NCBI GenBank assembly: GCA_035301445.1
Contig: DATGUH010000153.1
Span: 8,196-72,195, forward strand
Reading direction: 5' to 3'
Source of the DNA: Pseudogracilibacillus sp.
GTDB lineage: Bacteria; Bacillota; Bacilli; Bacillales; Amphibacillaceae
Length of the DNA: 64,000 bases
Within the stretch, counting starts at the first letter, position 1; every line of letters starts with the position of its first letter. The notes beneath the pieces were generated by a model. The model was not told where the DNA came from. It ran no database searches and saw only the letters and a program-made list of their open reading frames with translations. Positions 1-14,416 of the stretch are shown here, piece by piece. The position numbers and the translations under genes are program-made.

Positions 1-1206
1 TGCTCTTATGCTTAAATTCTTGTTGGATGCAAGGACTCGTAATTTATCCATCCAAGTGGCTCCAAACACTTTTACACGACCAATGTGATATTTATCTTCG
101 CTAGATTTATCAGGACCCTTTCTGGCATAAATATAGCCACAGGAACATTCGAATGTACCGATAGGAGCTGTTGTTTTAAAATCTCTTGTAATCTTTACAT
201 TACTGATTACCAATTGCTTATAATGATCGGCAGCCTTATTTAAGCATGGCCAAGGACCTTTACCGAAAGGACCTAAATCCTCACGAACACGAAAAAGTTC
301 TTCTACGTCTTTTCCTAAAAAGTACAGAAAGAATAGATGGCGCAAAGGATGGACATGACGCTTTTCGTTGCGAGTTAATACCTTGAGCCAATTGTGTTCA
401 TCTTCCCCGTTAAAATTCGATTCGTACTTTTCTAGAAATCCTTTTGGGAAATTCACTTGAAATGCATCAAATAACTCTTTTTGCCTTACTTGGTTTGATG
501 TAGTAATTAAATTTTTCTCTTTAAGAAGCATTTGATACCTTTTAAAGATTTCCTCACGAGAGAACACTACTATATCAACATTTAACAGTTGATATGCCAT
601 TGTCGCTAAATTTACTTGGATATCAAATCGTTCAGGGTACACCACCTCCTGTATAACAGATAAATCCATTTTTTGTACCTCAAACCGAATAAACTTGATA
701 CGACTATGCTCGGTAAATTCATCTGGATATTTCTTTAGTTGTAAATAATGATGCGCACACAAGTCTATGCCCTGTAATTGATGCTCCCTATGAATGTATG
801 GTTCTCCGTATCTATCAATATCACCCTTGGCGCATTGTGAGCAGTAGTATAATCCATCTTTCTTGCAAATACCTCCTGCAATCATGCCAAGTCTCGTATA
901 AAGACCCTTTCCGTCACCTTGAACGTCCCACAGAATCTCTTGCTGTCGCTGTTTAGAAAGGAATGGAGCATAAAACGGATAAATAGTATGTTTTGCTAAC
1001 AGACTTTCTACCGAGTAACGGTTTCCTATTTGTTGAGCTAAAGCATCAAAATGGCTACCAATCTCTAAACTCGGTATCACAGAACGACTTTGAAACACTT
1101 CTTCCAACGTATCTTTGTAATCTATATTTCCACTATAAAAATGATAACGTGCAATCGCTGAATAAATTAATTCATCGGGATATGGATCTGTAAAGAATGG
1201 CAGCAT
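1..1206 (-). CDS. tnsD: TnsD/TniQ family target-selection protein (partial, 3' end outside window; absent from ORF track)
   Basis: Manual translation from ATG 1206 (RBS GGAGG): MLPFFTDPYPDELIYSAIARYH... with TniQ zinc motif YCSQC...HREHQL..IDLCAHH, HVHPLRHL, GPWPCLN and CSCG; frame open to position 1. Confidence 0.9.
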   Translation of the reverse strand, partial: MLPFFTDPYPDELIYSAIARYHFYSGNIDYKDTLEEVFQSRSVIPSLEIGSHFDALAQQIGNRYSVESLLAKHTIYPFYAPFLSKQRQQEILWDVQGDGKGLYTRLGMIAGGICKKDGLYYCSQCAKGDIDRYGEPYIHREHQLQGIDLCAHHYLQLKKYPDEFTEHSRIKFIRFEVQKMDLSVIQEVVYPERFDIQVNLATMAYQLLNVDIVVFSREEIFKRYQMLLKEKNLITTSNQVRQKELFDAFQVNFPKGFLEKYESNFNGEDEHNWLKVLTRNEKRHVHPLRHLFFLYFLGKDVEELFRVREDLGPFGKGPWPCLNKAADHYKQLVISNVKITRDFKTTAPIGTFECSCGYIYARKGPDKSSEDKYHIGRVKVFGATWMDKLRVLASNKNLSIRA

Positions 1207-1217
1207 TTGCTTCCCTC

Positions 1218-2909
1218 CTAGTAGAACTCCTTCAAAGGTTTTTTAATGTATCCATTTGCTTTTAATAATTCATAGGGGTGTTGCTTTTTTTCCAATGCTT
1301 GCTTTCTTAGCTTTAGTAATGGTAGAACCTCTACATTTTTTACTTTTGCCTTTGCTTTTTGATCTTTCTTTTGTTGATTTAAGGCAATCGCCTGCTGAAT
1401 CGCATCTGATTTAAGTTGATTAAATTCAGTATCAAGTGAATTTTCTTCAACTATTTTTTGTACGAGTTTTTTTATATCATTCTCTTTCAAACTATCAAAA
1501 ATACCAAGGGCTGCTACTTCAACACTTAAGTTTTCGATCATGTCTTGACGTTTATACTCGATTCTATTTTGTCGTTCCTTAAACGCCTCCTGAATACGTC
1601 CTGCTATTTCTGTATTTCGCTTATGGTTCAGCATAACTTCATCCAGGTTGATCATGATATCTTCATATTTCATCATATCGGCAATATTGTTTGTCCGAAT
1701 AGCTGTCATCATTGGTTGAATCGTTTGCATATCTTCTTTCGCAGTCTTTTTCAGTACTTGTGGCGTAATGATTTCATTCGGGTTGCCCTCATCAAATAAT
1801 GCGCGTTCTTGTGCTAAAATAAATAAGTTCATAGCAACAGCAGTAATCCCTTGGCATTCGTAATAAAATGATTTCTTTAATTCCTCAGTAAGCTCAGAAT
1901 AGGTTTTTAAACACTGTAATTCCCAAAGAGTTTCTAAGAAGAACTCCCATTCTTCACTATTTTCCGCCATACGATCCCAAATAATAGCTCCATCACTTGC
2001 AGCTCGTCTTGCCTGCCTGAAATTCCCCTTAAATAGTTTTTGTGCCTTAGAAGTACCAATTAATACGGTTGGAATGCCAACCGTATTAGATAGCGTTACA
2101 AAGAAATTCAGCATTTCTTCCTGATCATTTTTAGAATGTAGTAGGTGCTGGATTTCATCAATTACCAGAACGCCAATGCCATACATGCTTGCTAATGAAG
2201 TCATGTGCAATAACATGGTCGATGTCACTCGATTTAAGTAACCGAATTTCTCAAGATATCTTGTTCCTAACAAGTCATCAATCGCTTTAAAGAAACTTTT
2301 ACATAGAGTAGATAAGCTTCCATCATAAGGACAGTCAATTTTAAGCCATACAATTTGGGTCCGATTAAACGGTTGTCCCTTGTATTCTTCATGCTTGATT
2401 ACCTGTGGATACATAAGCAAAAGACGTTCAATTGCCGTTGTTTTACCAATTCCAGAAATACCAATAATGGATAAACTATCGGCGGTCGAGCGAATATAAT
2501 CCAGTCTTTCATCGATATATTTATGTGTGGTCTCTTCTTCACGCAATTCATGCAATACACGAATACGCTCTAAAAATGTTATGTCTAAAGGATTACGTGC
2601 TAAGTAACTCCTACGAATCAACGTTGATAAACGACGTTCTACCTCGAAGTGAATAGGCAAGGGCTGGATAAAATTCCTCACACGTTTTAATACGTGATAG
2701 CGAATATTCGTTGCACTTAACTTATCTTGCCTACTAATTCGTGGGGTCACCATAAATCTTTCCAACACATCATCCTCACTGAAAATCGCTGGAAGAGCTT
2801 CGATGAAAGGATTATTGGTATATTCACTTAAAGGTTGTTCCTTATAGGTACCTTTTTCAAATTCTCCTTTTAAAACAACCATGTCATTTGTTTTTCCCAA
2901 ATTCCTCAT
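1218..2909 (-). CDS. tnsC: TnsC AAA+ ATPase transposition regulator
   Basis: NPFIEALP, Walker A GISGIGKT, WLKIDCP, Walker B VLVIDEIQH; lies between tnsB and tnsD. Confidence 0.93.
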   Translation of the reverse strand: MRNLGKTNDMVVLKGEFEKGTYKEQPLSEYTNNPFIEALPAIFSEDDVLERFMVTPRISRQDKLSATNIRYHVLKRVRNFIQPLPIHFEVERRLSTLIRRSYLARNPLDITFLERIRVLHELREEETTHKYIDERLDYIRSTADSLSIIGISGIGKTTAIERLLLMYPQVIKHEEYKGQPFNRTQIVWLKIDCPYDGSLSTLCKSFFKAIDDLLGTRYLEKFGYLNRVTSTMLLHMTSLASMYGIGVLVIDEIQHLLHSKNDQEEMLNFFVTLSNTVGIPTVLIGTSKAQKLFKGNFRQARRAASDGAIIWDRMAENSEEWEFFLETLWELQCLKTYSELTEELKKSFYYECQGITAVAMNLFILAQERALFDEGNPNEIITPQVLKKTAKEDMQTIQPMMTAIRTNNIADMMKYEDIMINLDEVMLNHKRNTEIAGRIQEAFKERQNRIEYKRQDMIENLSVEVAALGIFDSLKENDIKKLVQKIVEENSLDTEFNQLKSDAIQQAIALNQQKKDQKAKAKVKNVEVLPLLKLRKQALEKKQHPYELLKANGYIKKPLKEFY

Positions 2910-5040
2910 CTCGCTTCTTCTTTAATTTTTGCATTAGTCGTGAGGATGATTTCTTAGGTGGTGTCTCATCGACCTTTTCTTTTGTAGCGAAGTCAATTAC
3001 TTCAGCTGATTCACTAACCTTATCAGGTGATAAATCAAATTTTTCAGATTCACGGTTTAATTGTTTTTCAACATCCTTGTTATCACGAATAGAAGCTATT
3101 TTGGCTTTCTTACTCGTTGGTTGGTTGTATGATTGTTTTTTATTTTTCACAGCATTTTTAATGATCTCTTCCATTGCTGCATCTGTATTTACTGTGAGTT
3201 GAATTTGATTCGTACGTTCTATTTCTTCTAGTTCGTTTCGAAGTTGTTGTTGGAAGACAATTTCTTCCAATAAATCTTCTTTATATTGCTGACTTGGTTC
3301 TAACAAAATACACGTCTCAAAGTCCATTCCGTTATCATGGGGAATATAGATTTTTTCGACGTGTCTAGGATCATAAACAACTTCTACACTTCTATTTTTC
3401 AACTTCAAATACCAATCCTCTTCAATCGCTCTTTGAGAACCGTATAGAAGGTTTTTAAATTTTATTCCTGCCCTTGAAATTGTTGCTTTCCCTCTCGGTA
3501 GCACGTTCAAGCGAAGAATATTTCTATCAATTGTTCTTAGCCTTCCCGTGCGATTTTGAATGCCCCAACTCCATAAATTAATTGGCGTTGGAACTAACCC
3601 CTCTGCGACCATTTCTTTTTCAACAGGGTATTTATCAATGACTTTTTGATTGTGATGCAGCGCCATTGTAATAATAAGAGACGTAAACTCCTTTAAATTC
3701 AGCGTAGCATTTAAGCGATAATCCTGATCTCCACGCTCTCTATATTCCTTTTGAATCGCTCCAGGTGCCTTTTGCTTCAGCTTACCGTTAAACGTACGAA
3801 ATTTCCTTTCAACAATTCCTTTTAAATCTCCACGATAAGCCGTAGTATTCTCAATTTTAATATTAAGATTGTTAATGAGATTGTCTACCGAATAACCTTC
3901 AAACTCACCTCGGTCAGCGATAATTATTTCAGGCAAATGATGTGTTGGCCATTGCTCAGGAGTTATATCAATTCCATATTGCTTACAAAATTCCACCTTG
4001 TCTGCAACCATATTATCTAAAGCCATCATTGCTCCGATCCATGATGGACCTTCTAGTCCGACATAAAGCCCTGTGATAATACGTGAATATACATCAAGAA
4101 CAGCATAAATAACTGGTCGTCCAATTACTTTATTTACATCAAGCGAACTAACTAAATAGATATCAGCAATAGTTGCGTCAATCTGGAATCTAGTTCCAGG
4201 ACCATTTGTTTCCGATTTAGAATTACCTAAAATTGGACGATGCTTCAATTCATACTCTTTCGTACTTTTACGAAATTGAATATCTTTTTTTGGATCTTCT
4301 AGCTTTTTAAACCAATAGTAAAACTGATGGTAAGAGGGCGTTCGGGTAGCATCCCAAATACGGTATTTCAGCTCACCGTTTTCCTTGTAGCGATCAGAAT
4401 AGAAGTCACGTAGCATAAAATTATATACATCTTTTAAAGAATAGTTATTCTTTTTCCTGTAGTACTTATTGATAACGTGTTCAATTTGGACCTTAACTTC
4501 TTCTGTAATGTTAATCCCAGTTTGATATTCATTATTTAAATTTACTCTTCTAGGACGACCAACTTTTTCTTTCGTTAAAGCTTTCGTTTTACCTTTACCA
4601 CCTGAATTAGAGTAGTCAGGTAACATGGCGTTTTTTGTCATTCCACGCTGCCAATAGCGAGTTAGCAACTTTTTAATCTTTGTCTTACCTAAGTTGCTAT
4701 CCCTAACTACTTCAATAATTTTATTCTCTCTCCCTTGTTTACGGAGCAAATCTTGCATATTAGGCACGCAGTATTTTTGTATAGTTTCCCAATCTTCTTC
4801 GCGCTTACGAATTTGTACCTCTGTTAAATCACCTTCAGAAATCATTTTTGCATAAGGATCACTAATTGCTAACAGTTCACCTTGCTTGATGTCTGTGGTT
4901 AGGCTAGAGTATAGCTCTTTTCGTGGCATAGCACTGCTGGTGTCAATATTAACTATATATACATGTGGTTCTTCAATATCTATTACCCGAATTCTCTTTG
5001 AATCTGTTACATATTGAAATACCTGATTAATATAAATCAT
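2884..5040 (-). CDS. tnsB: TnsB DDE transposase
   Basis: RYWQRG..NAMLPDY, GPGTRFQIDATIAD (D), IIADRGE (D), KGIVERKF (E); 718 aa. Confidence 0.94.
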   Translation of the reverse strand: MIYINQVFQYVTDSKRIRVIDIEEPHVYIVNIDTSSAMPRKELYSSLTTDIKQGELLAISDPYAKMISEGDLTEVQIRKREEDWETIQKYCVPNMQDLLRKQGRENKIIEVVRDSNLGKTKIKKLLTRYWQRGMTKNAMLPDYSNSGGKGKTKALTKEKVGRPRRVNLNNEYQTGINITEEVKVQIEHVINKYYRKKNNYSLKDVYNFMLRDFYSDRYKENGELKYRIWDATRTPSYHQFYYWFKKLEDPKKDIQFRKSTKEYELKHRPILGNSKSETNGPGTRFQIDATIADIYLVSSLDVNKVIGRPVIYAVLDVYSRIITGLYVGLEGPSWIGAMMALDNMVADKVEFCKQYGIDITPEQWPTHHLPEIIIADRGEFEGYSVDNLINNLNIKIENTTAYRGDLKGIVERKFRTFNGKLKQKAPGAIQKEYRERGDQDYRLNATLNLKEFTSLIITMALHHNQKVIDKYPVEKEMVAEGLVPTPINLWSWGIQNRTGRLRTIDRNILRLNVLPRGKATISRAGIKFKNLLYGSQRAIEEDWYLKLKNRSVEVVYDPRHVEKIYIPHDNGMDFETCILLEPSQQYKEDLLEEIVFQQQLRNELEEIERTNQIQLTVNTDAAMEEIIKNAVKNKKQSYNQPTSKKAKIASIRDNKDVEKQLNRESEKFDLSPDKVSESAEVIDFATKEKVDETPPKKSSSRLMQKLKKKRDEEFGKNK

Positions 5041-5876
5041 CCGTATTTCACCTTCTCTAATTTACTTTCATCAACATACTTAACATCAGTTGGCTTCTCT
5101 AAATCAATTGGCTTGTACATATCTGTAACCATAATTTTTTTGGCAAGCAAATGATAAAACAACGTAACACCACTACCGAAAGGCAAGTGTGTATCTGCAT
5201 CAAACTCACTAGCAATTTCTCGGATACTTTGCGAATTATTCAATAGACGACTCATAAGAGACAATGATAAATCATCAATTTGTTGGTCAGCCATTTCTCG
5301 ATATACATCATAGTTCCGAATATCAAAATAATCATGGATATAACTAATATTTCTAGCCACGGTCTTATCAATTTCTTCCTCTGTTACGATACCCCAACTA
5401 ATGCCTCTACGCTCCCAGTAAACCCGTTCAATTTCGAATTTCTCTAACACACGTTCTTCTAGAAGCTTATCTTTCATTTTGATAGTATGAGCAACTTCAA
5501 ATACACCTTGTCCCTTGTCAACTGTTAATAAAAAGTCCGTTGACATAACAATCGGATCGCCTGTTTTTGGATCAGCTGGGTGTTTAATTCCAAGCTCTTC
5601 CGCAATGACAATTGTCTCTTCTTGTGGTAATAAAGGAAATTGTTCACGAATATCTAAAACGGCATCGGAAAATTCAGTCAAATAAAAATAATTTCGTTCC
5701 AAATCCGATAAAAACTCATGTTGTCTGCCAGTTTTTATACCTTTTAATCTCGTTGACCGACCTAGTGAGGAAACATCTTGAATTTTTAGCCATGGCTGAT
5801 AATCTGCCCCACTGCCAGTTCCTCTACCTTCTTTGATCCACTTATCTATTTTAGATGTTCTTTTTCTTTTCGCCAC
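5037..5876 (-). CDS. tnsA: TnsA endonuclease
   Basis: EGRGTGSGADYQPWL, HEFLSDLER, DIREQFPL, MSTDFL, EKFEIERVYW motifs; GTG start with AAAGGGG RBS. Confidence 0.94.
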   Translation of the reverse strand: MAKRKRTSKIDKWIKEGRGTGSGADYQPWLKIQDVSSLGRSTRLKGIKTGRQHEFLSDLERNYFYLTEFSDAVLDIREQFPLLPQEETIVIAEELGIKHPADPKTGDPIVMSTDFLLTVDKGQGVFEVAHTIKMKDKLLEERVLEKFEIERVYWERRGISWGIVTEEEIDKTVARNISYIHDYFDIRNYDVYREMADQQIDDLSLSLMSRLLNNSQSIREIASEFDADTHLPFGSGVTLFYHLLAKKIMVTDMYKPIDLEKPTDVKYVDESKLEKVKYG

Positions 5877-5895
5877 AAAAACACCCCTTTAGACA

Positions 5896-5924
5896 ATCAT
5901 ATCCAAAGGGGTGAAACTTCGCAA
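5896..5924 (-). promoter_or_regulatory. sigmaA-type promoter for tnsA, with -35 overlapping the innermost TnsB site
   Basis: TTGCGA (5924-5919), 17-bp spacer, TATGAT (5901-5896). Confidence 0.7.
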
Positions 5925-6002
5925 CTTTTTTATAAACATCGCGACTTTGTTTTAAACATCGCATCTTTTTTACAAACGTCGCGACTTTATTTCAAACCTA
6001 CA
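5915..6002 (-). repeat. Transposon right end: 8-bp terminus plus four contiguous 20-bp TnsB-binding sites
   Basis: Minus strand: TGTAGGTT / TGAAATAAAGTCGCGACGTT / TGTAAAAAAGATGCGATGTT / TAAAACAAAGTCGCGATGTT / TATAAAAAAGTTGCGAAGTT; the AATAAAGTC core resembles Tn7 TnsB sites. Confidence 0.92.
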
Positions 6003-6417
6003 TATAGGGTACAAAACGCTTTAACGCATGGCCAACCCACACTAAACATTTTGTACGGAGATTCAAACGAATAACCGCACCGCCTAAAACGAGCGATGAA
6101 ACGCGCTCAGGATAATCGTCTGCAATCGTCTGCGCTACAATCGTTCCGAGGGACATCCCAACGATATGGGACTTCTGAATGTGTAACTCATCTAACACGT
6201 CGACAACTTCTTTTGCGATTTCTGTAAAATTATCGCCCTTTTCCCACAGCCCACGCTCAGATTTTCCATGACCTCTCAAATCCAATACGAGTACATTGTA
6301 TTCTTTTCGAAATGCACGAACTTGCTTAAACCAAGTAGATGAACTCGCTCCCGCTCCATGAATAAATGTCACCCATGGCACGTCTAGTCCGATTATATAT
6401 GTTTTGTAATGAAGCAT
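5998..6417 (-). pseudogene. Alpha/beta-fold hydrolase truncated by the transposon insertion
   Basis: FIHGAG, DLRGHGKS and GMSLG nucleophile elbow present; the ORF stops after about 139 aa at a TAG supplied by the transposon end (TAT A|TG TAG); the acid/His half of the fold is missing. Confidence 0.85.
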
Positions 6418-6631
6418 TTTATTCATCCTCCACAATCATTTACCTCTTCATTATATCGATATAACAAAGAGCTAATCCTCTTTAACTTATCATGACGTCC
6501 ACCCTTTCTCAATTAATTATAGAGGATTCCATCATACCTACTTTCCCTTTTTGTCAATCTTGTGGCGATTCAATCGTTATTTGCATATAAAAAAGCCAGA
6601 TGCACTACGCACATGGCTCGTATACCTCATA

Positions 6632-7144
6632 TTATTTTTCAAGTAATTTTAATGATTCACGGTTAAACGCTGGGAGATCTGCTGGTGTTCGACTTGTCAC
6701 CAATTGATTTTGACATACAACGACTTCTTTATCTGCAAAATTAACGCCCGCATATTCCATATCGACTTGAATCGATTTATAACCTGTTGCATCCCGACCT
6801 TCTAATGCTTTTGCGGTAATGAGTAATTGCGGTCCGTGACAAATTGCAAAGACTGGCTTATCACCGTCCATAAATGCTTTCGCAAATTGAACGAATCGGT
6901 CATCTGCCCGTAATTGGTCTGGTGAAAATCCACCAGGTATTAATAATGCATCAAAATCTTCTGGTTTCACTTGATCAATTCCTTGGTCAGACGTGAAGAC
7001 TTCACCTTTTTTCCCTTTAATCTCTGCACCAGCTTCTTTTTCAATAATCACGACTTCATGTCCTGCTTCTTGAAAGGCTTTTGCTGGTTCCGTAAACTCA
7101 GAATCCTCCACTAAATTTGTCATGACCGTTGCAATTTTTGCCAT
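6632..7144 (-). CDS. PfpI/DJ-1 family protein (YfkM/YraA-like glyoxalase III / general stress protein)
   Basis: EDSEF, DALLIPGGFSPDQLR, FAICHGPQLL; RBS AAGGAGG before ATG 7144. Confidence 0.9.
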   Translation of the reverse strand: MAKIATVMTNLVEDSEFTEPAKAFQEAGHEVVIIEKEAGAEIKGKKGEVFTSDQGIDQVKPEDFDALLIPGGFSPDQLRADDRFVQFAKAFMDGDKPVFAICHGPQLLITAKALEGRDATGYKSIQVDMEYAGVNFADKEVVVCQNQLVTSRTPADLPAFNRESLKLLEK

Positions 7145-7182
7145 TGATTCAAACGCCTCCTTAAGATCATTGTCTTCTATGT

Positions 7183-7207
7183 TTACCACGTTCTATACAT
7201 TCAAAAC
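7183..7207 (-). promoter_or_regulatory. Putative sigmaB promoter for the PfpI gene
   Basis: GTTTTG-N13-TGGTAA against consensus GTTTAA-N12-14-GGGWAW; the gene family is sigmaB-controlled in Bacillus. Confidence 0.45.
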
Positions 7208-7222
7208 ATACAACCATCAGCT

Positions 7223-7822
7223 TTACTTACGAAACTTCGATACGTACTGATTGCCCTTTTCATAAAAACGCCACGGATAATGAACCGCTTCCCCACTATT
7301 CCCAATACCAATACGTGGGCTTGTTTCAACCTCTCCTGTAAACTGGCCTTCCGCAATATATAAAGGCGGCTTCGTCCAACAATGCCCGTAATACGCCTTT
7401 GTAATATTTAACGCTTTTGTTAACTTGCCAGGCCCATTCGTCCAATTGACTTGTTTCAAATGTGCCCCGCGATAATGTTTCATCTGCTCAAGCCCTTCAA
7501 TCGGTTCAACTGCGCGAATTAAGATTGCATGCGGTGTGCCAACTGGTCCCGCAACAACATTAATAAGTGTATGTGTATGCATTTCATAAGCATAAAGCTT
7601 TCCAGGTTCACCAAACATAATTTCTGTTCGCTTCGTTCGACGATTGCCAAAACTATGAGCCGCCTGATCCAGTGGTCCTTGGTATGCTTCTGTTTCAACA
7701 ATTTTAGCGACTAATACACCTTCAGGTAATTCATGGACGATAAATTGTCCAATGAGTGCTTCTGCTAATTGGAGTGCTGGTTGTTCAAAAAAATGTTGCG
7801 GAACAGGTTCGTACATATACAC
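7223..7822 (-). CDS. 3-methyladenine DNA glycosylase (MPG/AAG family)
   Basis: IVETEAY.GPLDQAAHS, AILIRAVEP, TNGPGKLTKAL, SPRIGI, PWRFY. Confidence 0.92.
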   Translation of the reverse strand: MYMYEPVPQHFFEQPALQLAEALIGQFIVHELPEGVLVAKIVETEAYQGPLDQAAHSFGNRRTKRTEIMFGEPGKLYAYEMHTHTLINVVAGPVGTPHAILIRAVEPIEGLEQMKHYRGAHLKQVNWTNGPGKLTKALNITKAYYGHCWTKPPLYIAEGQFTGEVETSPRIGIGNSGEAVHYPWRFYEKGNQYVSKFRK

Positions 7823-7884
7823 ACCCTCCTTTTCTTTCGTTATACTACAATTAAGACATGCTATTTTTAAAGGGGGATTTTTTC

Positions 7885-8181
7885 ATGAAAAACTTACAAC
7901 AAGACATTATTCAATTTGTCGAAAAGAGAAACTGGACGAACAATCAAGATATACGCAATTTGGCCATATCGATTAATTTAGAAGCAAGTGAGCTATTAGA
8001 GCATTTTCAATGGTGTAATGCAGCTGAAGCTATTCGTCAAGAAAAAGACGAAATTGCAGAAGAAGCAGCCGATATTCTTATTTACTTACTTCAGTTTGCC
8101 CATTATGCCGATTTTGATTTACAAGAAGCGGTAAAGAAAAAACTTGCTAAAAATGAACAGCGTTTTCCAATCCACTCATAA
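7885..8181 (+). CDS. MazG-like nucleotide pyrophosphohydrolase (dCTPase type)
   Basis: F..RNW..NLAISINLEASELLEHFQW...EEAADILIYLL...K..KNEQRFP; RBS AAGGGGG. Confidence 0.85.
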   Translation: MKNLQQDIIQFVEKRNWTNNQDIRNLAISINLEASELLEHFQWCNAAEAIRQEKDEIAEEAADILIYLLQFAHYADFDLQEAVKKKLAKNEQRFPIHS

Positions 8182-8189
8182 TTTGCGTA

Positions 8190-8231
8190 AAAATGACTTG
8201 CCTCTCACGATCAAAAGACAAGTCATTTTTT
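8190..8231. terminator. Bidirectional intrinsic terminator
   Basis: AAAAATGACTTG...CAAGTCATTTTTTT hairpin between convergent genes. Confidence 0.7.
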
Positions 8232-9118
8232 TATTTTAATAAACCCTTTTCCTCCAAAAACGCACGTGCAACATCTTCTGGTTTTTCCTCATCTAAATCG
8301 ACACGCGCATTCATCTTTAACATCTCTTCTTCAGAAATTTCACCAGCCAATGCTTGCAACACTTCTTCTAGTTCGGGGAAATCATCCAATGTTTCTTGGC
8401 GAACAATCGGTGCTGCATCGTACTTAGGGAAAAATGCTAAATCATCTTCCGTCGTTTGTAATTCAAATAACTGAATGCGACTATCAGTTGTAAATGCTGG
8501 AATAACATCGACTTCTCCGTTTTTCACCGCTTCGTACATAATGTTCGGATCTAAATCACGCGTATCGCTAAATTCCATCTCATATTCATCGATTAAATCA
8601 TTATATCCGTCTCCTTCACGTTCGTAAAACGAGTGAGGTCCTCCAAATACAACATCTTGTTTCTGAGAAATTTCTGCCACATCAGAGTACGTTTCCGCAC
8701 CGTCGAGTACTTCATTAGCATATGCCAATGTATAACTATTTTCGAATCCTAATGGTTCTAACCAAACGACATCAAATTTCTCTTTATATCCTTCTTTTAC
8801 TCGTTTATACACATCTTCTGATGATTCACCAGGTGCTGTATCTTCTTTCAATACATCTTTCAATCCAGTACCCGTATATTCTACATATAAATCGATTTCC
8901 CCTTTTTCAATCGCCGGTGTTAAAATCGATACTTCACCAAGACCTTCTTTGTATGACACGTCATAATCTGTTTGTTCTTCAATATAAATCCCGAGCACAT
9001 AGGGTAAAATAAACTGCTCTGTCCACGGCTTACCTCCAATAACAATTTCCTCTTTACTCCCACAAGCACTTAATAATAATACAATCCCCAACAAACTACC
9101 GAGCAATGATTTCTTCAT
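8231..9118 (-). CDS. Glycine betaine/osmoprotectant ABC transporter substrate-binding lipoprotein (OpuCC-like)
   Basis: Lipobox LSACG, GEIDLYVEYTGT, LGFENSY, FFPKYDAAPIVR. Confidence 0.88.
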   Translation of the reverse strand: MKKSLLGSLLGIVLLLSACGSKEEIVIGGKPWTEQFILPYVLGIYIEEQTDYDVSYKEGLGEVSILTPAIEKGEIDLYVEYTGTGLKDVLKEDTAPGESSEDVYKRVKEGYKEKFDVVWLEPLGFENSYTLAYANEVLDGAETYSDVAEISQKQDVVFGGPHSFYEREGDGYNDLIDEYEMEFSDTRDLDPNIMYEAVKNGEVDVIPAFTTDSRIQLFELQTTEDDLAFFPKYDAAPIVRQETLDDFPELEEVLQALAGEISEEEMLKMNARVDLDEEKPEDVARAFLEEKGLLK

Positions 9119-9139
9119 ATCGTCTCCTCCATCTATCAT

Positions 9140-9772
9140 TCAAATTCCTTTTGGTGTTACTTTTTTCTCTACCCATTTCAATACATAATCAAAAATAATT
9201 GCAAGAAGTGCTACAGGTAATGCACCAGCAAGTACTAACGAGTTATTATACGATTGCAATCCTCGATAAATCACATCACCTAACCCACCTGCTCCGACAA
9301 ATGTGGCTAATGTAGCAATGCCGACCGTTAATACAGTTGCAGTACGAATACCAGCCATAATAATTGGTAAAGCGATTGGAAGTTCAATTTTCACCAATAT
9401 TTGTTGTGGTGTCATGCCCATCCCTTTTCCTGCATCGATAATCGATTCATCGGCACTCGTTAGCCCTGTATATGTATTCCGTACAATCGGTAATAACGCA
9501 TAAATAATGAGTGCGATTAATGCTGTTTTCGAGCCAATCCCAATTAATGGTACGAGAAAACCAAACAGAGCTAAGCTTGGAATTGTTTGTAAAATCGCAG
9601 TCACGCCAATAATTGGTTCAGCAAACTTTCGATAACGTGCGACAAATATCCCTAAAGGGAGTGCAATAATCGTCCCTACTGCCAGTGCAACAAATGATAA
9701 ATACATATGTTGTAAGAAGGCTTCTAAAATGAAGTCCGAACGACTTGTAAACGTTTCCAAAAAGTGATTCAT
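9140..9772 (-). CDS. Osmoprotectant ABC transporter permease (OpuCB/CD-like)
   Basis: QTIPSLALFG, IIDAGKGMGMT..QIL..IELP, ATFVGAGGLG. Confidence 0.9.
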   Translation of the reverse strand: MNHFLETFTSRSDFILEAFLQHMYLSFVALAVGTIIALPLGIFVARYRKFAEPIIGVTAILQTIPSLALFGFLVPLIGIGSKTALIALIIYALLPIVRNTYTGLTSADESIIDAGKGMGMTPQQILVKIELPIALPIIMAGIRTATVLTVGIATLATFVGAGGLGDVIYRGLQSYNNSLVLAGALPVALLAIIFDYVLKWVEKKVTPKGI

Positions 9773-10740
9773 TTGACTGATGCACCTCCTTTAATCGACA
9801 TGAGCGCATCCAATAACATCGCATAATTTACATAGCCAAGGATTTCGCCGTCGCTTACAACCGCTAGTTGTTCATGCGGACCCGTTTTTAGTTTTTCAAT
9901 AGCGTCAGCAATCGTCTCATCAACCCTTACTTCCTCAACATCTCCAACGATTGTCTGCAGAAAATAATGTGACACATAAGAAAGTGGCATCTGGTCAAAT
10001 TCCAATTGACGCATCATGCGCTCTTCTCCAATAAAGGTTTTGACAAATTCATTTTTTGGCTCTCTAACAAGTGATTGTGGTGACCCCATTTGCTCAATTT
10101 GCCCATCACGCATAATGATGATATAATCAGCGATTTCAAGGGCTTCATCCATATCATGCGTAACGAAGACAATGGTTTTCTGGATTTCTTTTTGTAACGC
10201 TTTTAATCGATCTTGTAACTGCTCCCTACTAATTGGGTCTAATGCGGAGAACGGTTCATCCATTAAAATGATATTCGGATTACTTGCTAAAGCCCGACTC
10301 ACTCCTATACGCTGTTGCTGTCCCCCCGATAATGCTTTTGGATAACGTTCTCTAAATACCGCAGGGTCCAATTCGACCATACGCAATAATTCATCAACTC
10401 GTTCTTGAATTTGTTGTGGATCCCAGTTTAACAATTCCGGAACAAGCGCAATATTTTGCGCAATCGTCATATGTGGAATGAGTCCGATTCTTTGGATCAC
10501 ATATCCTATCGAGCGTCGCAACTCGATTTCATCACGTTCAGCAATCGGCTCCCCGTCAATGAATATCTCCCCTGTTGTCGGTTTTTCAAGACGGTTAATC
10601 ATGCGCATAAATGTCGTTTTCCCACAACCACTCGGTCCGATAATCGCCGTTAATTGGTTTGTTGGAATCGTAACAGATACCCCTCTTAATGCTTCCGTTC
10701 CATCCGGAAACTTCTTTGTAACATTTTCAAAAGTAATCAT
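9769..10740 (-). CDS. Osmoprotectant ABC transporter ATP-binding subunit (OpuCA-like)
   Basis: [30 protein letters not shown]-terminal CBS-like region. Confidence 0.9.
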   Translation of the reverse strand: MITFENVTKKFPDGTEALRGVSVTIPTNQLTAIIGPSGCGKTTFMRMINRLEKPTTGEIFIDGEPIAERDEIELRRSIGYVIQRIGLIPHMTIAQNIALVPELLNWDPQQIQERVDELLRMVELDPAVFRERYPKALSGGQQQRIGVSRALASNPNIILMDEPFSALDPISREQLQDRLKALQKEIQKTIVFVTHDMDEALEIADYIIIMRDGQIEQMGSPQSLVREPKNEFVKTFIGEERMMRQLEFDQMPLSYVSHYFLQTIVGDVEEVRVDETIADAIEKLKTGPHEQLAVVSDGEILGYVNYAMLLDALMSIKGGASVK

Positions 10741-10746
10741 ACATTG

Positions 10747-10786
10747 AACCATTCCTTTTTCACTAAAACCATTCCTTTTTCACTAA
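10747..10786. repeat. Perfect 20-bp tandem duplication spanning the RBS of the opu operon
   Basis: AACCATTCCTTTTTCACTAA twice (10747-10766, 10767-10786). Confidence 0.95.
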
Positions 10787-10883
10787 GTAGTCAATATTCT
10801 TACAAATTGTTATATGTATACCCTATGGTTTTATTCTCAATCATTGCACATGAAAAAATGACACCAAATCATTGATGTCATTT

Positions 10884-11528
10884 TTATAAATAATCCAAAT
10901 AACGTCCAATCGCTTGCCAATCCGCTTCAATGGATGGACGATGTGACGGTCGATAGAAAACAGATGCCGGGTGAAAGGTCGGAATAATCGTGAATGGTTG
11001 ATCCGTTAAATGATAATGCTCGTCTTCCAAATCTCTTAAGTATTGAATCGGTTTTTGTAATCGTTGCCCGTGCAATTTTGTCACTTTTGCATCAGATCCA
11101 ATAAGCCTTTGCAATCCTACATTACCGAGCGTCACAATGAGTTTCGGCTGTAAAATATCGATTTCATAATCTAAAATCGGCGCATGTGCTAAAATCTCCG
11201 TTTTCGTAGGCGGACGATTATATTTACGCTCTGTATACGTCCCGTCTCGCGCTCTTTTCTGTCCCCAACGATACGGACGACTGCGTACTGCACTTGTAAT
11301 GTACACATCTTCGCGCGTTAAGCCAATGGAATCGAGGGATTGCATCAATTCTTTCCCTGCTCGTCCGATAAACGGAATCCCGTCGACTAATTCAAACTCA
11401 CCAGGTGCTTCCCCAACCAACATGATCTTCGGATTTTTCGGACCTTCTCCATACACAAACCCTTCCACAGGCCGATCCCCCATCCGCTCAATCCCTAATT
11501 GCGCTAATGACTCCGGTATTCTAAACAT
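10884..11528 (-). CDS. Uracil-DNA glycosylase family 4-like protein
   Basis: MLVGEAPG...GIPFIGRAG, NRPP, IVTLGN, PTFHPA. Confidence 0.85.
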   Translation of the reverse strand: MFRIPESLAQLGIERMGDRPVEGFVYGEGPKNPKIMLVGEAPGEFELVDGIPFIGRAGKELMQSLDSIGLTREDVYITSAVRSRPYRWGQKRARDGTYTERKYNRPPTKTEILAHAPILDYEIDILQPKLIVTLGNVGLQRLIGSDAKVTKLHGQRLQKPIQYLRDLEDEHYHLTDQPFTIIPTFHPASVFYRPSHRPSIEADWQAIGRYLDYL

Positions 11529-11889
11529 CACCAAAACCCTTTCTTTCTTCAATTATGTATATCATCCCACATTTTTATGTTACTGAAACGTTTTTTAATC
11601 CGTATATAGAAAAGAAGCTACAATCACGTTGACTGTAGCAACTCTTTATCATACTTTGATTGCTGTAAAGTGCAGTAAAACTCATAATTGTTACTATTAG
11701 TAACATCATGTACATGACGAGTTGAGTAAACCTATCCATCTTGCATATTAGAAGTGAATCCTCTATCAAACAAGTTGAAATAATGTTTATTCAATCTATA
11801 ATATTCGTTTATTGTGAAACCAGTCATTCGTTCACCAATCATATAAATAACTGTTCGTAAATCATTGAATACTGATGTTTTCTTGTCTA

Positions 11890-12669
11890 CTACTTTACCC
11901 CTTGCAACAGATGGTTAATAAGCCATAGTGCACTTTGCTTCTTTACGAAATTTGTTGGTTCTGAATGAACGCTTGTAAATAGATCTGTAGCTTTCTTAAA
12001 AAGAACTTTAGAATGTGTAATTTGTCGGCATAATGTTGTATTCGATATATCTAACGAAATATTCTGAGAATCCGAAAGGTAAATACGCAGTTGACCATCT
12101 TTCTGGACGTTATATCCAGAAAACGCTTCTAATGAAATCCATGCATTTGAATTAACAGTAGGTGATTCCGTTGGAAAAAATACACTAATTGGAATAATCT
12201 CTTGGATTGTTCGAACACAAATCGGTAACTTTTGTTGAATGATAAGGTTTTCTTGTGACATTTTAACAGCTTCCTCATATGATGAACCATATACTCTTAG
12301 TGAATCCTTTATCACTTCAAAAGGCGATCTTCTAATCACTTCTTCTTTTTGTTCTTCAATGACTAGTGTGTGGACACCTTTCTCTTTTTGAATTGGAAGC
12401 AAAGCCAATGTTTTTGAAGAAACAATATAAACATTCTTCTCTTCTCGTTTTGGTTCAACTGGAGTTGTTTCGTCTGTTTCGTTCGCTTCATCTGTTTCAT
12501 TGACTTGGCTTATTGTATCATTTGTTTCATTTGCATAATTTGTCGTTTCTTTCATCTCATTCTTTGTGACACTTGTCTCATTTTCATGATTTGTTGTTTC
12601 TTGCATCTCATTCTTTGTCTCATTTGTTTTGTCTTCATTATTTGTATTGTTATTACAATCTAATATCAT
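11890..12669 (-). CDS. comK: ComK family competence transcription factor with N-terminal Asn/Glu/Thr repeat extension
   Basis: YIVSSKTLALLP, SPFEVIKDSLRVYGSSY, KLPI, FFPTESPT..NAWIS resemble recalled B. subtilis ComK motifs (FGSSY, KPPI, LFPT.SS...WIS); RBS GAGGGGG before ATG 12669. Confidence 0.75.
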   Translation of the reverse strand: MILDCNNNTNNEDKTNETKNEMQETTNHENETSVTKNEMKETTNYANETNDTISQVNETDEANETDETTPVEPKREEKNVYIVSSKTLALLPIQKEKGVHTLVIEEQKEEVIRRSPFEVIKDSLRVYGSSYEEAVKMSQENLIIQQKLPICVRTIQEIIPISVFFPTESPTVNSNAWISLEAFSGYNVQKDGQLRIYLSDSQNISLDISNTTLCRQITHSKVLFKKATDLFTSVHSEPTNFVKKQSALWLINHLLQGVK

Positions 12670-13152
12670 CAAATTTCCCCCTCTAAAATATAAAATGGAT
12701 AAACTGACTGACATTGATGAAAAATAACATAATATATTTTTGCTCAATCCCCCCACATCAGCATCAATATAGTAAAATACAAATTGAAACGAATATTTTT
12801 ATCATGTACAAATATAATATACCAAGTATTCTGAAAAAATCAATAGTTTAAATAGTGAAAAAGTAATATTTCAAACAAAATAATAGTCCTAAACATTCAT
12901 TACTTAATAACCTACTTAAGTTACACGTTTTACCTTGTTACTAAAATATCGACAATATAACATACATAAAAATCATATATACAGTAAATAAAGACACCAA
13001 TTTTCAAAATTCATTTAATAAACGTTAAAATCAATTCGTCACTAACATGCTTTTAGCCTTCGATATGTACATTTTATGTTCAATCAAATTTCTAGAAAAA
13101 TTGATAATCACCCCACCTACAAACACCCCTAAAACACTTTACATCAAACAGC

Positions 13153-13191
13153 AAAAAAGCCGAAATTGAATAAGCTTCATTTCGACTTTTT
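13153..13191 (-). terminator. Intrinsic terminator of niaP
   Basis: AAAAAAGCCGAAAT...ATTTCGACTTTTT hairpin. Confidence 0.65.
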
Positions 13192-13219
13192 CGCTAGTAG
13201 ATTCTTAATATATATTTTC

Positions 13220-14416
13220 CTACGTCAACTCCACCTGTTTCGTCTCCGTCCCTAAGATAATAACGGCGAGAATACCGATCAATATAGCACCGCAAAATAG
13301 GCCAAAGATGGTGCCGAAACCGTAGCCAGCATTTAGTAAAAACCCTACGAGTAATGGGCCGAAAATGCCACCGACACGTCCTACGGCAGCTGCTGCACCT
13401 GATCCCGTTGCGCGAATGGCTGTTGGGTATTGTTCTGGTGAGTATGCGTATAATGCACCCCATGCCCCTAAGTTAAAGAATGATAGAAGTGCACCGAATG
13501 TTAATAGTGTCGCAAGTGTTTCTGCATGTCCAAATGCCACTGCACTTAATGCGGTACCGAGTAAATAGGTTGAGAGCACAAATTTGCGGCCTACACGTTC
13601 AATAAGCCAAGCTGCTGTAAAATAGCCTGGTAATTGGGCAATCGTCATAAGTAACACGTAGCCGAAGCTTTCAATCATATTAAAGCCTTTCATCACCATA
13701 ACGCTTGGTAACCATAAAAACATGCCGTAATAGGAAAATACAACCGTAAACCAAACAATCCATAACATCGTTGTCCGTTTCGCATATGCTGGCGACCAAA
13801 TCGTTTTCAACTTGGCGAAGCCCGACTCTTTTTTCCTACCCGCTTCTTCAAATTTTGGCGAGTCAGGTAATTTTCTGCGTAAATAAATCGCATAAAATGC
13901 CGGTAATGCGGTAATGATTAATGCAATTCTCCAACCGTAATCAGGAATGATGAAATAAGCGATAAGGGCTGCTAAAATCCAACCGACTGCCCAGAAACTT
14001 TCAAGTAATACAACGACGCGTCCTCGTTCATGTGCTGCGACGCTTTCTGATACAAGCGTGGAGGCAACTGGTAGTTCCCCACCTAATCCTGCGCCAACGA
14101 AAAAGCGTAACAGTAAAAAAGCACCTAATGTCGTCGTTAAAGCAGACAAGCCACTGGCTACTGAGAACATGACAAGCGTCATCATAAACACTTGCTTACG
14201 TCCAATTTTATCCGCTAACATCCCGAATAGAAAAGCGCCTACTGCCATTCCAATCGAGTTCACACTGCCAATCCATCCCATTTGTTCTGGTGTTAAGTTC
14301 CAGTCTATCGCAACTGCCGCGATCACAAATGATAATATGCCTACATCCATCGCATCGAACATCCAACCTGTTCCTGCGAGACCTAATAATTTATTCCGTG
14401 AGATTTGTTGTTTCAT
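13220..14416 (-). CDS. niaP: MFS transporter, NiaP/YceI niacin permease
   Basis: GWMFDAMDVGILSF, LADKIGRK, GLGGELPVAST, LLESFWAVGW, QLPGY; NiaR-like site upstream. Confidence 0.82.
   Translation of the reverse strand: MKQQISRNKLLGLAGTGWMFDAMDVGILSFVIAAVAIDWNLTPEQMGWIGSVNSIGMAVGAFLFGMLADKIGRKQVFMMTLVMFSVASGLSALTTTLGAFLLLRFFVGAGLGGELPVASTLVSESVAAHERGRVVVLLESFWAVGWILAALIAYFIIPDYGWRIALIITALPAFYAIYLRRKLPDSPKFEEAGRKKESGFAKLKTIWSPAYAKRTTMLWIVWFTVVFSYYGMFLWLPSVMVMKGFNMIESFGYVLLMTIAQLPGYFTAAWLIERVGRKFVLSTYLLGTALSAVAFGHAETLATLLTFGALLSFFNLGAWGALYAYSPEQYPTAIRATGSGAAAAVGRVGGIFGPLLVGFLLNAGYGFGTIFGLFCGAILIGILAVIILGTETKQVELT

Follow-up and report, generated by a model that had tools for sequence, protein, structure and literature searches.

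How did a Tn7-like element come to lie inside an alpha/beta-hydrolase gene, off any glmS-type safe site? The locus that raises this question is a window of 64,000 nucleotides (by window we mean this whole stretch of DNA) from Pseudogracilibacillus sp., which spans positions 8196-72195 of contig DATGUH010000153.1 (hereafter C153) in an assembly of 195 contigs that is 86% complete. The initial annotation of the window had recognized this placement, which is borne out by the tns genes, the end repeats and the match of the interrupted gene to an intact protein (P0001). As the cause it had listed several routes: a new TnsD attachment site in the hydrolase, a pseudo-attachment site (pseudo-att), a TnsE-like pathway, or an RNA-guided or second TniQ. 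The best overall explanation, to which we assign a probability of about 0.6, is that TnsE-type insertions away from the homing site took place in a host without glmS, and that C153 itself is probably a mosaic.

The element and its insertion point comprise the following features (window coordinates; aa, amino acids; ORF, open reading frame):

1..6002, minus strand: in-window part of the Tn7-like element; the remaining 7.6 kb lies left of the window
1..1206, minus strand: tnsD, N-terminal 402 codons (full protein 622 aa, continuing left of the window); PF15978 TnsD 3.5e-103 and PF06527 TniQ 1.8e-16 for the full protein
1218..2909, minus strand: tnsC, AAA+ regulator, 563 aa; PF13401 1.1e-22, PF05621 TniB 8.4e-13
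2884..5040, minus strand: tnsB, transposase, 718 aa; PF09299 Mu-transpos_C 7.5e-10
5037..5876, minus strand: tnsA, endonuclease subunit, 279 aa; PF08722 1.7e-21, PF08721 1e-15
5914..6002, no strand: tnsA-proximal (Tn7 'right') end; four repeats at 20-bp spacing (5914-5993), then ...CCTACA
5998..6417, minus strand: truncated alpha/beta-hydrolase ORF, residues 1-138 of 264; PF00561 1.5e-22; stop codon from the element
6003..6007, no strand: TATAG, the 5 bp expected as target duplication under a simple insertion; second copy not found, the far-end flank being ACTAC
left of the window: tnsE, a 510-aa ORF overlapping the end of tnsD; PF18623 TnsE_C 1e-17, 64.7 bits against a cut-off of 26.7; RefSeq names TnsE in plasmid pLEW6932

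On the plus strand, the junction between element and hydrolase gene reads ...TTTCAAACCTACA|TATAGGGTAC, with ACA at window positions 6000-6002. On the minus strand, the hydrolase frame runs GTA CCC TAT ATG TAG, so that, as the initial annotation had read it, the terminus at 6002 abuts the frame and the element supplies the stop codon (5998-6000). The fragment ends in ...VPYM, and the 264-aa protein P0001 is 100% identical across it and goes on ...VPYMLLYKIF..., which confirms that the N-terminal half alone is left. Homologues longer than the fragment measure 255-313 aa in the best 120 of 273 relatives (from 712 candidates, the search having been limited to longer proteins). These lengths, together with the 264 aa of P0001, indicate that about half of the gene is missing, cut at codon 138, and speak against a hydrolase that is naturally about 140 aa long. 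The exact 139-aa truncated product is recorded from one contig only (C153), and intact forms in the same 90% cluster come from at least 27 contigs. On another contig, of 54.7 kb in ENA, a 126-aa product is recorded with its start exactly at Met138 (P0130). The intact gene, as seen at the loose ends of contigs from sequencing runs, reads ...AACAGCATATAGGG; the host sequence there also holds CA, the last two bases of the terminus. The terminal base at 6002 is fixed by other copies of the element, which are identical to the base: one on plasmid pLEW6932, one on a contig of a sequencing run (X15) and two on JGI metagenome contigs (L081 and L082). The 3' half of the hydrolase was not found in the 86%-complete assembly, and the gene is present in 0 of 22 other genomes of the genus, which makes synteny unusable. 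The hydrolase junction is a genuine transposition junction at codon 138, and the gene is destroyed. Both junctions of the element in C153 fall precisely on its terminal base and therefore mark real transposition events.

A megablast search against plasmids delimited the element, with a single full-length match on pLEW6932 (NC_009130.1) at 100.0% identity over contig positions 565-14201 (L001 numbering, which is that of C153). This plasmid is from Staphylococcus sp. 693-2 of poultry litter, and its RefSeq annotation lists the same genes, with TnsB appearing as a Mu transposase C-terminal domain protein. The plasmid copy runs TGTTGC...CCTACA for 13,630 bp and has GATAA on both sides, a perfect 5-bp duplication. 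From this match it follows that the whole element in C153 is positions 568-14197 (13,630 bp), that the unit transposes with 5-bp duplications, and that two end-like sequences within it (757-794 and 1746-1826) are internal. The far end thus lies at position 568, 7,628 bp left of the window, where the element opens with TGTTGC and has repeats related to those of the tnsA end. The tnsA-end repeat cluster (family D2) occurs once in the assembly. Features of the Tn7-like family are present in this copy, namely TnsA, TnsB and TnsC, a TniQ/TnsD selector, TGT...ACA termini and clustered repeats at the tnsA end. Further, the ten ORFs of at least 150 aa within the 13.6-kb element were all assigned, none of them to cas genes or a TniQ beyond TnsD, and we found no CRISPR array-like repeats and no Rfam match (0) in the element. 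Its gene list therefore includes tnsE and lacks cas genes, a mini-array or a second tniQ, and the proposed RNA-guided or second-TniQ routes are not supported.

For TnsD, the identical protein is recorded from 130 contigs, and for TnsE from 122; the element is found in soil, farm, compost, faeces and poultry-litter metagenomes. As a separate observation, a plasmid record of Klebsiella quasipneumoniae (NZ_CP031260.1) has a 99.9% match to the left 5.2 kb (L001 568-5758) that begins exactly at the far end and is without annotated features; the alternatives are transfer across phyla and contamination of the record.

Elsewhere, the relatives of this element sit next to glmS. We sampled 401 genomes of the order, 59 of which had a TnsD match, and fetched the tnsA side of the 17 best (57-76% identity). 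Comparing the insertion sites of close TnsD homologues in this manner, as the initial annotation had suggested, showed that in 12 of the 17 loci glmS reads towards the tnsA end, which lies 24-26 bp beyond the glmS stop codon. The other five include one element in tandem behind the far end of a glmS-sited element, one in an IstB-like ORF and three whose tnsA end lies beyond the fetched stretch. In Bacillus sp. SD088 (TnsD 87% identical), glmS is just upstream of the tns genes; the tnsA end was not located there. A search of JGI metagenome contigs with the terminal 33 nt of this exact end gave two matches (L081 and L082), in both of which the exact end stands 24 bp after the glmS stop, their glmS sequences being different. 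The glmS position of 12/17 relatives and of 2/2 JGI contigs marks the element as one of the glmS-homing kind: judged by the company it keeps, it is an ordinary glmS-homing Tn7 relative.

Some of these loci show variations of their own. The case in the IstB-like ORF (L038; G150:C38), with TnsB 86% and TnsC 86.5% identical, is another natural insertion away from glmS in the clade. In two of the three loci whose tnsA end lies beyond the fetched stretch (L039 and L049, of genomes G382 and G176), about 9.7 kb separates the end of tnsC from the start of tnsD, pointing to an insertion within the tns operon. The SD088 locus (L060 13521-18320) is the closest named relative and has different cargo, an ATPase-like ORF of 592 aa and a helicase-like one of 543 aa; beyond its far end come 5 bp (TGTGT) and then a gene-less leftover end of the tnsA type, a decayed tandem array at glmS.

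The host, in turn, appears to have no such site. The initial annotation had noted that no glmS is nearby, and none was found anywhere in the assembly: its genome has no TIGR01135 match over the cut-off, and tblastn with a GlmS of the same family was also empty. Across the genus, 0 of 23 genomes have a match over the TIGR01135 cut-off, 13 of these genomes being at least 90% complete. Applied to the family sample, the same search detects glmS in 66 of its 81 genomes, with several further genera of the family also lacking a match, and it succeeds in 14 of 14 controls. The nagB gene is present in the genome (C113:6078-6791). On these searches the host lineage appears to have no attTn7 at all, and with glmS missing from the genus, the TnsD route would have no target here. 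Most likely, then, the element cut the hydrolase gene because the host has no glmS.

Sequencing runs contain a further insertion of the element, at an unrelated site. Runs were picked by the host flank (window 6003-12000), and the Logan contigs of four were compared with L001:1-15000, namely a soil run (X1), a farm run (X2), a poultry-litter run (X5) and 'organism A' (X15). Logan contigs omit rare variants, summed contig depth is not copy number, and our run findings cover the contigs listed. The summed contig depths were as follows:

X1: element about 4,300-12,500; left flank 158; right flank 28
X2: element about 270; left flank 45-70; right flank 51
X5: element 61-73; left flank 12; right flank 9
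X15: element 0-9; left flank 12; right flank 8.5

In X1, X2 and X5 the element is deeper than its flanks by a factor of 5 to several hundred; X15 alone has it at a comparable or lower depth. The element contigs of X2 and X5 begin exactly at 568 and end exactly at 14197; because they stop at both termini, the element has many contexts in these samples. From the window flank, contigs of X1, X2 and X15 reach an intact hydrolase, the loose end translating as LLYKIFAYII or LLYKIFSYII, and from the left flank, contigs of X1, X15 and X5 reach an intact sensor-kinase gene. In X2, the part of the element with the ABC-transporter cargo (L001 2625-3893) has a depth of 468 versus 270, about 1.7x, and may have other contexts.

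Two contigs of X15 together define a further insertion. One, of 6,505 nt, runs from the far end (L001 568-842) through 3,104 letters to L001 15000-14196 and into the intact hydrolase; on the other, the tnsA end runs into T+CAGCAATCG..., which is window 9905-9926. With 6805+3104 = 9909, exactly 5 bp (TCAGC) are common to the two flanks, at a target site that is uninterrupted in the window:

9905..9909, no strand: TCAGC, X15 target site, within a proV/opuA-like ABC ATPase ORF (9769-10752, minus strand)

The two junctions show that X15 carries the same element as a simple insertion, oriented as in C153 and 3.9 kb away from the hydrolase site. Thus, the same element made further insertions away from glmS in the same bacterial population, one in the proV-like gene (both junctions) and one in the sensor-kinase gene that flanks the far end in C153. 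The element has made 5-bp duplications elsewhere, GATAA on pLEW6932 and TCAGC in X15; at its C153 flanks, ACTAC stands against TATAG. These four flanks (GATAA, TCAGC, TATAG and ACTAC) have no shared sequence. In X2 and X5, the dominant flank of the tnsA end reads TTATT at a distance of 25 bp, which would suit a glmS stop; this is five letters, a 30-mer scan was empty, and we do not use it as evidence.

We then asked whether the hydrolase site or the X15 site resembles a glmS attachment site, using a position matrix built on the 3'-terminal 60 nt of the 12 glmS genes adjoining related elements. Real sites score 75-93 bits. The hydrolase flank scores -61.9 at 25-bp spacing, a value reached by 11.5% of genome positions, and at the best of 11 spacings (20-30 bp) it lies in the top 1.3% of genome positions; the top score anywhere in the assembly is -2.2. 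The X15 site likewise has no glmS-site likeness. A pseudo-att in the hydrolase was accordingly rejected, there being no matrix signal at either flank, and this route from the initial annotation is not supported.

These observations can be brought together in a simple scheme. The element is complete and intact, and its TnsD homes 24-26 bp downstream of glmS in other hosts; in a host without glmS, the TnsD route would be closed; and insertions away from the homing site would proceed by a second route, TnsABC+TnsE. By elimination and from context, TnsABC+TnsE most likely made the insertion in the hydrolase, and the TnsE-like pathway, one of the routes listed initially, gains support from the 510-aa TnsE_C ORF that follows tnsD. 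In prototypic Tn7, according to the accessible portions of PMC4678854, PMC5371812 and PMC11406308, TnsE targets replicating DNA independently of sequence and in one orientation to replication, and prefers conjugal plasmids, termination regions and break repair. From GC skew and gene strand, the replication fork appears to cross C153 right to left, and the two insertions mapped in the window (2/2) have one orientation, tnsA end first relative to this inferred fork. The kinase operon looks lagging-strand encoded in two of three relatives, which would give the same polarity. A shared polarity of the insertions relative to replication is suggestive only.

The other part of the explanation concerns the far end, beside which the initial annotation had expected TATAG and the 3' half of the hydrolase. 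Neither is there: left of position 568 lie ACTAC and the 5' part of the sensor-kinase gene. The 567 nt of this flank encode residues 86-271 of a 535-aa kinase, the gene reads into the element, and the contig starts inside it. The kinase is native to the genus, being 98% and 94% identical in two relatives (G004 and G002). The flanks of the element in C153 are thus the 5' parts of two different genes, with no matching duplication, and the 3' part of the kinase was not found in the assembly. Against the X1, X15 and X5 contigs this left flank has 14-16 differences in 567 places; the right flank has 0 in each of the four runs. The flank divergence, the start of the contig within the kinase gene, the many contexts of the element and the Met138 product, which is what one would expect of the reciprocal hydrolase junction, favor a mosaic. 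We put at roughly even odds that the assembly of C153 passed from one insertion allele or strain to another, joining a kinase junction to a hydrolase junction through the shared element.

Several points weigh against this combined explanation. TnsE is common in glmS-homing relatives, and its function has been tested in Tn7 alone, as far as the accessible text of PMC11406308 and PMC10293859 goes. The match of the ORF to the solved domain of Tn7 TnsE (5d17) is weak (E 0.086). A loose clamp pattern picks out QLVWLL at TnsE residues 181-186, which is kept in SD088 and establishes no clamp-binding motif. No replication-terminus signal is present in C153, where GC skew has one sign over 102 kb, and pLEW6932 is typed as non-mobilizable. 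The orientation argument consists of two firm sites and one inferred. The absence of glmS rests on searches and not on complete genomes of the species. The 3' halves of the kinase and the hydrolase are both missing from the 86%-complete assembly, as a deletion between two copies predicts. Finally, no contig bridging 567|568 or 14197|14198 of C153 is among the contigs listed for the four runs; the hydrolase junction consequently rests on the assembly alone.

Two other ways of choosing the site have to be set against TnsE. That TnsD chose it, the hydrolase holding a new or pseudo attachment site, fits the geometry, the hydrolase being oriented towards the tnsA end in the manner of glmS at attTn7. 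Against this stand the flank, which is unlike the glmS-site matrix at any spacing of 20-30 bp (at best in the top 1.3%, over 11 tries), the relatives and the same exact end sitting after glmS, the truncated product being known from one contig only, and the same element lying at three other unrelated sequences (GATAA, TCAGC and ACTAC). A new attachment site is hence not supported, and we regard choice by TnsD as highly improbable. Less easily set aside, and still unlikely, is the action of the core machinery without TnsE, by TnsC firing without a selector or by some other, unrecognized selector. Gain-of-function mutants of Tn7 TnsC insert randomly without TnsD or TnsE (PMC4678854, in its accessible part), the target sequences share nothing, and C153 shows no terminus signal. 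This view is at odds with proteins that are the common form (TnsD on 130 contigs, TnsE on 122) and with the same end being found at glmS elsewhere, which gives no obviously deregulated variant, as well as with the single orientation of the two mapped insertions.

As to the contig, it may instead be true to one genome, a possibility that we rate clearly below even and as less likely than the mosaic. Copies in the kinase and hydrolase genes would have recombined, or an adjacent deletion would have stopped precisely at the far terminus; in both cases a single copy remains between the 5' parts of both genes, with the intervening DNA lost or inverted. Both junctions are precise to the terminal base, the missing 3' parts of the two genes match a deletion, and the lagging-strand orientation of the kinase fragment is kept in the contig. 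Such a rearrangement is disfavored by the 14-16 differences in 567 nt of a left flank compared with a strain whose right flank is identical, and by the contig ending 567 nt past the element within a gene. The kinase and the window genes are on separate contigs in all four relatives that have both (G002, G004, G005 and G009), which would make the deletion large; this synteny was compared in five relatives whose DNA is just 65-72% alike and is weak evidence. Further, prototypic Tn7 moves by cut-and-paste and shows target immunity (established knowledge, in part from the accessible text of PMC11406308), which disfavors nearby second copies and adjacent deletions. A more radical doubt is that the hydrolase junction is an assembly or library chimera carried by no cell: among the Logan contigs listed for the four runs none crosses it, X1, X2 and X15 have the intact gene as their dominant allele, and the element in X1 exceeds this flank in depth by more than 100x. 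We consider this scarcely credible, as the join falls at the same terminal base as in pLEW6932, X15, L081 and L082, host and element share just two bases there, too few for a false overlap, and the Met138-start product is known from another contig.

Among known systems, prototypic Tn7 shares with the element the set and order of the five genes, the TGT...ACA termini, the clustering of repeats at the tnsA end, 5-bp duplications and a homing position some 25 bp beyond the glmS stop, where the tnsA end is the one beside glmS. The second, sequence-independent route of prototypic Tn7 puts copies on plasmids and rarely in chromosomal genes, to which the off-site copies of this element may be likened. 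It differs from E. coli Tn7 in its very distant proteins, its Gram-positive host and, in the present host, the lack of glmS that leaves the second route alone open; in place of the integron of Tn7 it carries a two-component system, an ABC transporter and UppP. The pLEW6932 element is the same element (13,630 bp, 100.0% identity, same termini). That copy has a recombinase gene on one side and an ars operon on the other, and GATAA is duplicated, whereas the C153 copy is in the chromosome of another family and has no matching duplication. Like the Tn6022/AbaR-type elements of comM, this is a Tn7-like, tnsE-bearing element that inactivates a gene by insertion. Tn6022, in contrast, uses one conserved position in comM via TniQ and TnsF (from the accessible portions of PMC11406308 and PMC10293859), while the hydrolase is not a recurrent target and no such selector is present. 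Nor does the hydrolase look like a dedicated in-gene site: the truncated product is on one contig, 0 of the 17 fetched relatives are in a hydrolase, and there is no extra selector gene. The Bacillales glmS-homing elements, such as those of Bacillus sp. SD088 and the Bacillus cytotoxicus plasmids, belong to the same clade, with TnsD 57-87% identical and, for the B. cytotoxicus plasmid elements, DNA about 80% identical over tnsE-tnsB. They share a hairpin before tnsA and have tandem arrays and leftover ends at glmS; unlike the C153 copy, they carry other cargo and their chromosomal copies are at glmS. Unlike a CRISPR-associated transposon (CAST), the element has no cas effector genes and no CRISPR array.

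The element fits the Tn7 family in every tested respect, with the 5-bp duplication shown by its other copies, and its sequence is already in RefSeq. Insertion away from the homing site by the second pathway is textbook Tn7 behavior, and Tn7-like elements that disrupt genes have precedent in Tn6022. What is new here is a genus without the homing site, several polymorphic off-site insertions within one population, and 100% identity across bacterial families. In the literature searched, we found no treatment of the pLEW6932 element as a Tn7-like transposon and nothing on Tn7-like elements in hosts without glmS; the supplements of the Tn7 surveys (PMC8649781 and PMC10293859) were outside the search and may list the element. 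In the accessible portion of PMC6747052, a paper on pLEW6932, 'Tn7' occurs 0 times. Tentatively, and at odds a shade under even, we propose that the loss of glmS by a whole genus removed the homing site, and that an element arriving from staphylococci in litter or manure was forced into the TnsE route, producing polymorphic gene-breaking insertions, at least three in one species, with apparently one fork polarity. If true, Gram-positive bacteria would offer a natural experiment on TnsE-type targeting. The natural junctions form a set from which the targeting rules of a Gram-positive TnsE could be worked out. The case shows how a homing transposon behaves in a host without its homing site, where ordinary genes are hit, a harm that homing normally avoids. 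It also places an element with likely peptide-antibiotic protection cargo in common between a Staphylococcus plasmid and a different bacterial family at 100% identity, and it cautions that in metagenome-assembled genomes a contig passing through a mobile element with many contexts can join flanks that were never on one molecule.

The cargo lies outside the window:

left of the window: response regulator, histidine kinase, ABC ATPase, ABC-2 permease and uppP/bacA

The best NCBIfam match of the ABC ATPase is of the lantibiotic-protection type, below the cut-off, and by their family names these genes look like a peptide-antibiotic (bacitracin-type) protection module. The uppP/bacA gene (L001 862-1683) sits between a right-end-like terminus (757-794, ...TCTACA) and a left-end-like sequence (1746-1826) that is 73% like 568-648. 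The element looks as if it had grown by use of an outer left end, thereby capturing the phosphatase gene, and the outer end at 568 is used in all three independent copies seen. We had considered 1746 as the far end, with 568-794 as a separate mini element; the plasmid match, in which the unit begins at 568, ruled this out.

Just upstream of the tnsA start (window 5882-5913) lies an inverted repeat, CCCCTTTGGA...TCTAAAGGGG, which is present in most of the related elements compared. In the distant relatives L050, L045 and L040, the arms have other sequences and the pairing is kept (AACCTCTT...AAGAGGTT), which looks like compensatory change.

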